Origin: a plasmid
Reading direction: 5' to 3' (one strand)
Assembly (NCBI RefSeq): GCF_056746865.1
Contig: NZ_JBWKMP010000002.1
Length of the DNA: 64,000 bases
Shown here in pieces: positions 61,247 to 63,253 of this stretch. The notes below the pieces were generated by a model. The model worked only from the letters and a program-made list of their open reading frames with translations. It did not search any database and was not told the DNA's origin. A program made the position numbers and the translations under genes. The number at the start of each line of letters is the position of its first letter. Positions within the stretch are counted from its first letter, which is position 1.

Positions 61247-61717
61247 ATGACCAAATATTATGATCGCAGTGGAATTGAAATCTCCAGCGCAAAAATCCGC
61301 TGTGTTGATTCTGTAAAAGGTACTGCGGAATATACTTTTCGTATTCTTTGCGATAAATGCAATGGTCGGGGAGAGCGTAAGCATTTTTATAGAAGTCGCT
61401 GTATGGCTTGTAAAGCCACGGGTTACAGCCTCGAAACGACCCGCACTGCTTACACGCTGAATGCGCTGTACCGCATTAATGCTCAAGCTGCCCGCAAAGT
61501 GTCAGCATCCTTGCAAAACGAGCGTTTGAGGACTGAAAACGCCCACAACTCTGCGTTCAATGCATGGTGCAGATCTCATCAAAAAATGGTTGATGCAATC
61601 ACCCAGCAATCCAGCAGTAATAATTTTCTGGAAAGCCTTAAGTCTTCTTTAACCCACCAGCGTCAGTTAAGTGATAAGCAGCTGGCAGTCGCCGCCCGCA
61701 TTTTAGGGATTCATTAA
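61247..61717 (+). CDS. DnaJ-type zinc-finger (CxxCxGxG) protein, second paralog
   Basis: 156 aa containing CDKCNGRGERKHFYRSRCMACKATG, with GGAGGA upstream. It is paralogous to 37848..38564. Confidence 0.55.
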   Translation: MTKYYDRSGIEISSAKIRCVDSVKGTAEYTFRILCDKCNGRGERKHFYRSRCMACKATGYSLETTRTAYTLNALYRINAQAARKVSASLQNERLRTENAHNSAFNAWCRSHQKMVDAITQQSSSNNFLESLKSSLTHQRQLSDKQLAVAARILGIH

Positions 61718-61766
61718 TTCAAAGCCCTTTTAATTTAATTTTAAGGTCAATTATTACGGAGGAACT

Positions 61767-62063
61767 ATGATCCATTCATTTAAAGACAGACGGCTTGAAA
61801 AGTTCTTCCGTAATGGAAAAACAACGGCAGGTATTCCTTCTGAAATTATTAACGCGATTCTGTGTCGACTCGAAACGCTGGATAATGTCCAGAGTGAGCG
61901 GGAGTTATTATCCAACAGCTTGCGTTATGAACGCTTAAGAATGACGTCAAACCGTTATTCCTCCATTCGAGTAAACTCTAAGTATCGATTATTCTTTGAA
62001 TGGAATGATGGCGCACATAATGTCCATTTGTCAGCACATGACTATAAATCGCTCATCCATTAA
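61767..62063 (+). CDS. higB: HigB-like (plasmid maintenance system killer family) RelE-fold toxin
   Basis: 98 aa. MIHSFKDRRLEKFF..G...GIP...I...L..L ... YSSIRVNSKYRLFFEWNDG ... DY matches my memory of the MIKSFKHKGLKLLF ... WSIRVN..WRI.F.. family. GGAGGA lies 5 nt upstream. Confidence 0.65.
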   Translation: MIHSFKDRRLEKFFRNGKTTAGIPSEIINAILCRLETLDNVQSERELLSNSLRYERLRMTSNRYSSIRVNSKYRLFFEWNDGAHNVHLSAHDYKSLIH

Positions 62064-62071
62064 GGTTAAAA

Positions 62072-63253
62072 ATGAAGCTATTTTCAATTTCATCCCGGGA
62101 TACAAGCATGGACGCGATGTTTTATATCCAGGCCAGTACTAAACAACAGGCAAGTTACATATTTAGTACCCTTTCCCCGAAGCCTACTGCGAACTGCCAG
62201 CTTACAGATTTGCAGAATGAGACGGTCGTCCCTTCCATAAGCCCTATTTCGCTTTCACTTAACCCCTGGTCGATCAATTCCCAGTCCCGAACCCGGGAAT
62301 TGAGTATGGCCACGCATGGTCTTAACCTGATCTGTGCAGTCACGGATGAGCATACCCGTCAGATAGTAGACTTTTGCGATAACCTTGGACAGCAGCTTAA
62401 GGATCCGGACGACAAAAGCGCCTGGGTTAAGCTCATTAATTCTGAATGCGCATTGCTTAATTCTCCGCGTTTATATCCCGTTCTGCTGGAGCCGGAGACA
62501 CCGGCACAATTTGAAATCTTTGTGCCAGCTCCGGAAGATGGCGATCACGACACGGTTATAGCCAGCGTTGTTGAAGAATGTTTCGGAGATGAATGCCGGT
62601 ACAGAGCAACGGACAAAGCTTTTGCAATGTCGGAAAAGCCAATCATCAGGCTGGAAGCACATTTCAATGACAAACGGGAAAAGGTTTTAGAACTGACCTT
62701 TTCCAGTTTCAACCTTTCACTTTCTGCGTCCGTGTATGAACACCAGCTACGTCAGATTTTATTACTTTGCGAAGATTTTGGCGTAAGGCTTCAGGGTAGA
62801 GCCGGGGCATCCTGCCACATCAATATGCGCAGCGCTTACCGTCGTCTTGCACATGTCGGCACCGGCTCTCGCCCAGGTGATGGGAGTGATGTGCGGGGCT
62901 ATACCTCATCTAAAGAGCAAAAAGATGTTAAGGGGCTGCTCGATAAGTCAACCAGGGGAAGTGAGCTTGTACCGGCGAGGCACGGGCAGCAGTTTAACGG
63001 TGTCTTAGTGAATGCCACACCCGCACCGGCCACGACGGGTTTTATATACCTGTCGCATGATTTTCCGGAAGGCCAGTTTATGATGACAGCCGAGGTGTTG
63101 CATGTTGGAATAACACCGGGCGGGATCTACTACATTGAAACACTGGACGGATACCGGTTTATCGTTACAGCGTTTGAAAAGGGATTAATGAACGGTTTAA
63201 GGGAGTTTTTGGCTGTAAATGAGGACTACTTTAAGTATTACCGCTGGTCTTAG
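62072..63253 (+). CDS. Hypothetical 393-aa protein in the position of the antitoxin
   Basis: It starts 8 nt after the higB-like stop. I saw no helix-turn-helix or other motif. Confidence 0.5.
   Translation: MKLFSISSRDTSMDAMFYIQASTKQQASYIFSTLSPKPTANCQLTDLQNETVVPSISPISLSLNPWSINSQSRTRELSMATHGLNLICAVTDEHTRQIVDFCDNLGQQLKDPDDKSAWVKLINSECALLNSPRLYPVLLEPETPAQFEIFVPAPEDGDHDTVIASVVEECFGDECRYRATDKAFAMSEKPIIRLEAHFNDKREKVLELTFSSFNLSLSASVYEHQLRQILLLCEDFGVRLQGRAGASCHINMRSAYRRLAHVGTGSRPGDGSDVRGYTSSKEQKDVKGLLDKSTRGSELVPARHGQQFNGVLVNATPAPATTGFIYLSHDFPEGQFMMTAEVLHVGITPGGIYYIETLDGYRFIVTAFEKGLMNGLREFLAVNEDYFKYYRWS

Follow-up and report, generated by a model that had tools for sequence, protein, structure and literature searches.

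A conserved three-gene module of IncHI plasmids with a HigB-like gene and a large partner gene in the antitoxin slot

The founding type II toxin-antitoxin (TA) pair of the Pfam family PF05015 is HigB/HigA of Rts1 (Proteus vulgaris), a plasmid-borne operon in which the toxin gene comes first and the canonical partner, a HigA antitoxin of about 100 aa with an Xre/HTH_3 helix-turn-helix (HTH) domain, is encoded directly downstream. Here we analyse positions 61247-63253 of a 64,000-nt stretch of plasmid DNA (contig NZ_JBWKMP010000002.1 of RefSeq assembly GCF_056746865.1; hereafter the window, to which all positions refer unless a locus is named), where a gene for a 98-aa HigB-like protein is preceded by a gene for a 156-aa zinc-finger protein and followed by a gene for a 393-aa partner protein. 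Several other TA systems depart from the HigBA plan in ways that invite comparison, among them the tripartite toxin-antitoxin-chaperone (TAC) systems such as HigB1-HigA1-SecB-like chaperone of M. tuberculosis, the MqsR/MqsA pair, in which a RelE-fold toxin gene precedes that of an atypically large antitoxin (about 130 aa) with a C-terminal HTH and a toxin-binding domain unlike the folds of canonical antitoxins, and zinc binding is part of the system, and the CapRel-type modular or fused toxin-antitoxin defence proteins, in which a neutralising region is joined to a sensor domain.

As in Rts1, the toxin-like gene stands first, the partner follows immediately in the same operon and on a plasmid, and the HigB-like protein belongs to the same Pfam family as Rts1 HigB (about 32% identity over the whole length) and keeps the equivalents of Arg73, Asp90 and Tyr91. 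Unlike the Rts1 pair, the locus encodes a 393-aa partner that lacks an HTH and shows no resemblance to HigA, carries an extra zinc-finger gene upstream, and specifies a HigB-like protein with Glu in place of His54, Lys in place of His92 and a four-residue C-terminal extension; the canonical HigA gene directly downstream is absent. With the TAC systems it shares a HigB-family protein in a three-gene operon, where a helper role towards the partner is conceivable for the third protein, and the zinc-finger protein has a sub-threshold resemblance to the zinc domain of DnaJ, but there is no HigA, none of the three proteins matches the SecB family, and the gene order is different. The likeness to MqsR/MqsA lies in a toxin-like gene followed by an atypically large partner and in zinc binding within the system, whereas the zinc site lies here in a separate upstream protein and the partner, unlike MqsA, has no DNA-binding domain. 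The CapRel-type proteins are comparable in concept, in that a putative neutralising region is accompanied by a distinct domain that might detect a trigger, although there is no relation in sequence or fold, no PADLOC match was obtained for this locus, and loss of the C-terminal domain is not lethal to the host here. Plasmid-borne pairs of a HigB-family gene and a partner gene downstream of it are a known kind of system and non-canonical antitoxins are already a recognised theme; new here are the partner itself, the selected DYK variant of the active site, the three-gene organisation and the unannotated family of the C-terminal domain.

Organisation and conservation of the three-gene module

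Our favoured reading, which we hold tentatively, is that the locus is a three-gene operon of the IncHI plasmid backbone acting as a non-canonical toxin-partner module, in which the N-terminal region of the partner neutralises the HigB-like protein. The 98-aa protein would then have a genuine HigB fold of the ribosome-dependent mRNA endonuclease type with a remodelled catalytic C-terminus, and is presumed to be toxic, while the partner, translated by coupling from the same mRNA, would replace HigA and bind the HigB-like protein physically. Residues 1-252 of the partner, a tandem duplicate specific to this locus, would be the part likeliest to bind and restrain the HigB-like protein, the C-terminal beta-barrel, which also occurs in plasmid proteins that have no toxin beside them, would serve independently as an adaptor or sensor-type domain, and the zinc-finger protein would be a co-expressed accessory or regulatory component. 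Both the assignment of neutralisation to one region and the biological role, for which plasmid addiction, defence and establishment are candidates, are proposals at this stage.

The arrangement of the genes is that of type II TA systems in general, with adjacent, co-directional ORFs (open reading frames), a short gap, a Shine-Dalgarno (SD) sequence over the stop codon of the first gene of the pair and near-equal presence counts. A first-pass annotation, made from the letters alone, had listed the three ORFs, the strong SD of the 98-aa ORF, the 8-nt gap between its stop codon and the ATG of the partner, and the CxxCxGxG zinc-finger gene in the same orientation upstream, and all of these features were confirmed at its positions, with all three ORFs on the + strand (Table 1). 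The HigB-like gene is preceded by GGAGG at 61758-61762, 4 nt ahead of its ATG, and the zinc-finger gene by GGAGG at 61233-61237, while the SD-like AAGG of the partner (62062-62065) overlaps the TAA stop codon of the HigB-like gene. A terminator-like hairpin is the probable upstream boundary of the transcription unit, no terminator-like sites were found between the three genes, and each ORF has an SD, so that a single transcription unit fits the data. The promoter scan returned no sigma-70-like promoter on the + strand upstream of the module, with a total site count below the shuffle expectation. Within the module there was likewise no Rfam match, no tandem-repeat array and no positionally conserved alternative ORF, which makes a hidden small antitoxin unlikely.

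The window DNA is 100% identical to many IncHI2 plasmids, and the module lies about 11 kb from repHI2 (49297-50383). A tblastn search of PLSDB found the 393-aa protein in 1,304 plasmids, with an identity of at least 90% in IncHI2 and of about 60-63% in a second group, to which the IncHI1 plasmid pHCM1 belongs, and the plasmids carrying the module come from at least 15 genera. The module is core IncHI1/IncHI2 backbone, present on essentially all such plasmids, and genome and metagenome scans gave IncHI-type backbones exclusively and no other context. Within IncHI2 the PLSDB records are 1,026 for the zinc-finger gene, 1,026 for the HigB-like gene (counted in the IncHI2 identity band), and 1,030 and 1,024 for the 5' and 3' parts of the partner gene. 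The HigB-like gene is retained in about 1,080 plasmids with just two partial copies, and the zinc-finger gene is undisrupted, all 1,026 records covering at least 80% of the query, while the partner gene has partial copies.

To follow the module across its divergence, its genes were extracted from 30 loci, 29 of which include the upstream sequence. The order zinc-finger gene, HigB-like gene, partner gene was found in 29 out of 29, with a gap of 36-63 nt between the first two, and the HigB-like and partner genes are 8-15 nt apart in 30 out of 30, even where the partner has fallen to 30% identity and on the IncHI1 plasmid pHCM1. Wherever it is intact, the HigB-like protein is 98 aa long and 60-100% identical to the window copy; at the greatest divergence (loci L003 and L046) the identity to the window copies is 60% for the HigB-like protein, 35% for the zinc-finger protein and 30% for the partner. 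Pairwise ratios of nonsynonymous to synonymous substitution rates (dN/dS, omega) were 0.03-0.1 for the HigB-like gene, 0.08-0.15 for the zinc-finger gene and 0.07-0.18 for the partner gene. Since purifying selection acts on all three genes (omega 0.03-0.18), all three are functional and a decaying orphan toxin is excluded.

Table 1. Coordinates of the module genes, the regions of the partner protein and the upstream hairpin in the window.
Feature	Position	Strand	Remarks
Terminator-like hairpin	60953..60969	+	Stem of 7 pairs, then T-run; 3' of the upstream Ig-like (immunoglobulin-like, RSP-type) gene
Zinc-finger gene (156 aa)	61247..61717	+	First of the three module genes
HigB-like gene (98 aa)	61767..62063	+	HigB family, RelE superfamily
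Partner gene (393 aa)	62072..63253	+	Full-length ORF
Partner module copy 1, residues 1-128	62072..62455	+	Module of about 125 aa; beta-hairpin/helix units; AlphaFold2 (AF2) pLDDT (predicted local distance difference test) about 70-90
Partner module copy 2, residues 129-252	62456..62827	+	From hhalign and AF2; natural IS21 truncation right after it
Partner linker, residues 253-295	62828..62956	+	Probably flexible; pLDDT below 50 for residues 244-274
Partner C-domain, residues 296-393	62957..63250	+	Small beta-barrel capped by C-terminal helices, confidently modelled

The three proteins of the module

Profile searches place the 98-aa protein in the HigB/RelE family, as the first reading of the sequence had it. 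The protein matches PF05015 (HigB-like_toxin) with 65.7 bits against a cutoff of 27 (E 5.4e-18), residues 4-88 spanning profile positions 2-88 of 91, and PHROG 3066, 'toxin of TA system', at 8.9e-18, and its nearest solved relative is P. vulgaris HigB (4mct_B, E 7.5e-6). A relative with 38% identity, P0042, ends in DYH, and the gene for a 98-aa HTH_3 HigA lies 25 nt downstream; because HigA has the same place there, the partner occupies the antitoxin slot of our locus.

For P. vulgaris HigB, toxicity was found to require each of His54, Asp90, Tyr91 and His92, with a supporting role for Arg73, and to be abolished by H92A, H92F and delta-H92, the last of which really carries Lys at position 92 and a few extra residues and is about 190-fold slower (Schureck et al., PMC5027501). 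In the alignment with this enzyme, Arg73, Asp90 and Tyr91 are kept in the HigB-like protein as Arg74, Asp92 and Tyr93, His54 is replaced by Glu, as it is in the HigA-paired P0042, and His92 is replaced by Lys94, which is followed by a four-residue extension (DYK-SLIH). The C-terminus HDYKSLIH does differ from the usual DYH end, as had been pointed out before. The DYK motif is invariant across the IncHI subfamily and the terminal His98 nearly so. Judged by this conservation, the catalytic centre is remodelled under selection and not degraded, and it may or may not still cleave mRNA.

The full-length AF2 model of the partner (pLDDT 71) begins with beta-hairpin/helix repeats, which extend to about residue 240, and continues through a disordered linker into a small beta domain, and its residues 1-128 and 129-252 form a tandem duplication (hhalign probability 96.3%, E 1.8e-9). 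Family scans detected no HTH and no other family in it at E <= 1 (Pfam, NCBIfam, PADLOC, PHROG), and hhalign against a genuine HigA gave a probability of 0.1%, which bears out the earlier remark that the ORF shows neither an HTH motif nor a resemblance to HigA; a sequence-profile search of the PDB returned just chance-level DtxR matches (E about 0.2). In a profile search of 1.84 billion representative proteins, the N-terminal part was not found outside the partner's own family, and the C-terminal ~100 residues recurred as stand-alone proteins of 110-145 aa without a Pfam family. No toxin-like genes were found next to these stand-alone homologues, the loci being runs of small same-strand hypothetical genes of plasmid- or ICE-like character (ICE, integrative and conjugative element), and the C-terminal beta-barrel represents a domain family, not described before, of the accessory regions of mobile elements. 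The N-terminal region is exclusive to the locus and is kept in the truncated variants described below, whereas the families of the C-domain and of the zinc-finger protein occur without toxins, and for these reasons the N-terminal region is the best candidate for the element that would bind and neutralise the HigB-like protein. The two parts also evolve differently: invariant columns make up 40% of the C-domain and 9-10% of the N-terminal modules, and at the greatest divergence the C-domain retains 55-59% identity, against 18-26% for the N-terminal modules and 60% for the HigB-like protein.

Among the C-domain homologues, those at L014 2531-2950, L015 5001-5576 and L018 3989-4411 are stand-alone proteins of 130-190 aa without a Pfam family, and the homologues share the motif G..FDGV...G.IFG...F.DG.FI.TSEIV...YIET..GSRYLI...N..YF...WS. 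Some of their loci have DUF4942 or Xre_MbcA_ParS_C neighbours.

On IncHI2 plasmids the RefSeq annotation pipeline PGAP calls the partner a 315-aa 'flavin reductase' starting at an internal ATG near 62307, while on pHCM1 the same pipeline gives the full 393 aa as 'hypothetical protein'. Because the homologues are 391-394 aa long with a conserved N-terminus, and in view of the pHCM1 model, the 315-aa RefSeq model is too short. An identity as flavin reductase was not supported by Pfam, NCBIfam, the PDB sequence search or either of two fold searches, and the name appears to be a propagated mis-annotation.

The 156-aa protein contains a DnaJ-type zinc knuckle of the form CxxCxGxG plus CxxCxxxG (CDKCNGRG and CMACKATG) and has a helical C-terminal half; a homologue with 38% identity has all four Cys in place. 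The match to PF00684 (DnaJ_CXXCXGXG) is sub-threshold, with 20.8 bits against 32.7, and covers half the domain, that is, one zinc centre. The protein also matches PHROG 4046, a family of unknown function (3.9e-12), and, below threshold, anti-TRAP RtpA (E 0.0038). A distant 238-aa paralogue (37848-38564, + strand; BLASTP E 0.007) shares the CxxCxGxG knuckle and a C-terminal 'R-x-L-[ST]-[DE]-[KR]-Q-L' motif and sits after a ParB-HTH protein (36578-37633); as its neighbours are not toxin-like, the zinc-finger family is not toxin-specific.

Natural disruptions and surroundings of the module

Four exceptional plasmids from PLSDB, a small and non-exhaustive sample, show which parts of the module can be lost. 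In pS182-CTXM55-267k (L048 3001-3849) an IS21 element cuts the partner after about residue 252, and in pIncHIA (L047 2501-4459) an IS1 cuts it after about residue 355, with a further IS1 just upstream of the zinc-finger gene, in the promoter region. Both of these clinical plasmids keep partner residues 1-252, and in both the HigB-like gene is intact and identical to the window copy; the C-domain of the partner is dispensable for carrying an intact HigB-like gene. In pEC17-AB02384 an IS1 truncates the HigB-like gene at nt 158, the partner is gone and the zinc-finger gene is retained, and in pECJS-59-244 (L049/L051) an ISApl1-mcr-1-pap2-ISApl1 transposon has taken the place of the Ig-like gene, the zinc-finger gene, the HigB-like gene and the first 693 nt of the partner gene. 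These natural variants imply that the module can be lost as a whole. Loss of the N-terminal half of the partner beside an intact HigB-like gene was not seen among the few variants examined, which were not an exhaustive set. We found no functional study of the module ORFs in the literature on R27, R478 or pHCM1, and no transposon-insertion dataset for IncHI plasmids.

The case of pECJS-59-244 is also one in which a composite transposon carrying colistin resistance landed in the module and deleted it. Another kind of cargo stands on a metagenomic IncHI-like contig with a 47%-identical partner, where a complete TacA-TacT pair (antitoxin and GNAT acetyltransferase toxin; L011 7295-8046) lies directly downstream of the module; this insertion is restricted to the L011 lineage and suggests that the site downstream of the module is a hotspot for TA-type cargo. 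In L020 (pELE2-215, NZ_MN868653.1) the region is split into many short 'hypothetical protein' ORFs, a fragmentation that looks like uncorrected long-read frameshift errors and not like gene decay.

The module is directly downstream of one of three large Ig-like proteins (Big_3/DUF4165) encoded around repHI2, at 58395-60812 (+), 45733-48189 (+) and 52381-54801 (-). They resemble the RSP-type Ig-like proteins that were reported to be needed for IncHI conjugation (PMC6764697). On its other side, about 40 consecutive genes on the same strand follow, mostly small hypotheticals (pTB601, L001 11953-26160; L007 134-16670; the window from 61247 on), which include DNA methyltransferases, a 795-aa protein of the PAPS-reductase family, an HNH endonuclease, DUF6012, DUF957 and DUF3085; the run looks like an accessory or anti-defence-style island.

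Alternative readings and significance

A large non-canonical antitoxin, or a three-gene module, was the first of three possibilities raised in the first-pass annotation, and it gains from the invariant colinearity, the spacing of 8-15 nt and the exclusive occurrence of the N-terminal module together with the HigB-like protein. Several observations weigh against our favoured reading. Colinearity is not independent evidence of functional coupling, because all loci share the synteny of the plasmid backbone. The replacement of His92 by Lys reproduces the non-toxic 'Lys92' (delta-H92) variant of P. vulgaris HigB with its roughly 190-fold slower activity (PMC5027501), and His54 is replaced as well. 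The N-terminal region proposed to neutralise is the fast-evolving part of the partner, and it is the C-domain that tracks the HigB-like protein, which leaves an unexplained tension, since the part that follows the conservation of the HigB-like protein is the dispensable, non-toxin-specific one. No DNA-binding domain through which the partner could autoregulate is recognisable, and the truncations are two anecdotal cases, of which one has an additional IS1 in the promoter region.

The main alternative is that the HigB fold has been repurposed, a possible reading that we consider on balance doubtful. The HigB-like protein would then be non-toxic and need no antitoxin, and would work with the C-domain of the partner, and perhaps with the zinc-finger protein, in another plasmid function, for which ribosome or RNA binding, regulation, and establishment or anti-defence after transfer are candidates. 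This would agree with an active site in which Lys and the tail mimic the inactive delta-H92 enzyme and His54 is replaced, with an invariant DYK motif that indicates selection and not accident, with the HigB-like gene being the most constrained of the three (omega 0.03-0.1) and matched in divergence by the C-domain (60% and 55-59%), with the persistence in clinical isolates of plasmids that have a truncated partner and an intact HigB-like gene, and with the position of the module in a long same-strand run of small accessory genes including DNA methyltransferases. However, the Glu at the position of His54 is also found in the HigA-paired P0042, Glu serves as general base in YoeB and Lys is catalytic in RelE (PMC5027501), the equivalents of Arg73, Asp90 and Tyr91 are kept and the terminal His98 is nearly invariant, and the truncated variants retain the N-terminal 252 residues, so that neutralisation may persist in them. 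The earlier suggestion of a domesticated or inactive toxin is thus divided: an inactive and decaying gene is refuted by omega values of 0.03-0.1, while the change from His92 to Lys and the tolerated truncation of the partner leave room for a domesticated or remodelled one.

It is unlikely, in our estimate, that the real antitoxin is the zinc-finger protein, in an antitoxin-first order as in most RelE/ParE systems, with the 393-aa gene separate or auxiliary. Its gene always lies 36-63 nt upstream of the HigB-like gene, is retained where the HigB-like gene is truncated (pEC17-AB02384) and, unlike the partner gene, is never disrupted in PLSDB, small zinc-binding proteins can inhibit proteins, and there are weak sub-threshold matches to RtpA and to the DnaJ zinc domain. 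On the other hand, members of PF05015 normally have the antitoxin downstream, as is established for HigBA and seen in P0042, the family has a paralogue on the same plasmid and a PHROG family without a toxin neighbour, the gap of 36-63 nt is looser than the junction of 8-15 nt between the HigB-like and partner genes, and the lack of disruption in a gene of 471 nt is weak statistics. Also unlikely, and more speculative, is the idea that the module is not an addiction cassette at all but a plasmid-borne system of a new kind, in which case the fast-evolving tandem N-terminal modules of the partner would hold the DYK-type HigB-like protein while the C-domain, whose family is widespread among small proteins of plasmid and ICE accessory regions, would sense or dock onto a host or phage factor and so release or direct an RNase or ribosome-binding activity during phage attack or after conjugative entry.

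Very improbable, by comparison, is an active toxin neutralised in trans by a HigA encoded elsewhere, whether on the plasmid or by the host's chromosome. HigA-type antitoxins are common on the chromosomes of enterobacteria. A 'higB/higA' entry has been listed for IncHI2 plasmids without further detail (PMC8092524), but another report calls the system partial, 'hipA/hipB and higB' (PMC9019673). The annotation of the complete IncHI2 plasmid pTB601 contains no HigA, and when the 2,971 six-frame ORFs of the window and pTB601 were searched by phmmer, with a genuine HigA as query, no HigA-like ORF emerged (best E 0.16), the only Xre-type HTH on the plasmid being HipB. With no HigA on the plasmid, a plasmid-encoded rescue in trans, the third possibility of the first-pass annotation, is unlikely and is disfavoured here, and dependence on a host antitoxin would be fragile for plasmids found in at least 15 genera. 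Finally, the view of the HigB-like gene as a decaying orphan, left over from a higBA pair and lying beside unrelated genes without a functional module, is scarcely tenable, because the absence of a HigA gene and the label 'partial' in the literature (PMC9019673) are set against omega values of 0.03-0.1, an invariant length of 98 aa, 100% identity across IncHI2 sublineages that differ by 3-5% in the genes next to it, and retention in about 1,080 plasmids with two partial copies and with no conserved overlapping gene to explain the selection signal.

IncHI1 and IncHI2 plasmids, which in S. Typhi carry multidrug resistance (pHCM1), are also major vectors for mcr-1 and for extended-spectrum beta-lactamase genes. 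In genome papers the module described here appears under the name 'higB' or is labelled a 'partial TA system'. Should the partner prove to be a new type of antitoxin, it would add a large, duplicated and non-DNA-binding neutraliser to the type II repertoire, and a factor in the stability of plasmids of clinical importance would have been identified. If the HigB fold has been repurposed instead, the locus would offer an unambiguous example from nature of strong selection preserving a toxin fold for a role other than toxicity. Under either reading, the partner's beta-barrel at the C-terminus defines a domain family, so far unannotated, that occurs in the accessory regions of mobile elements.

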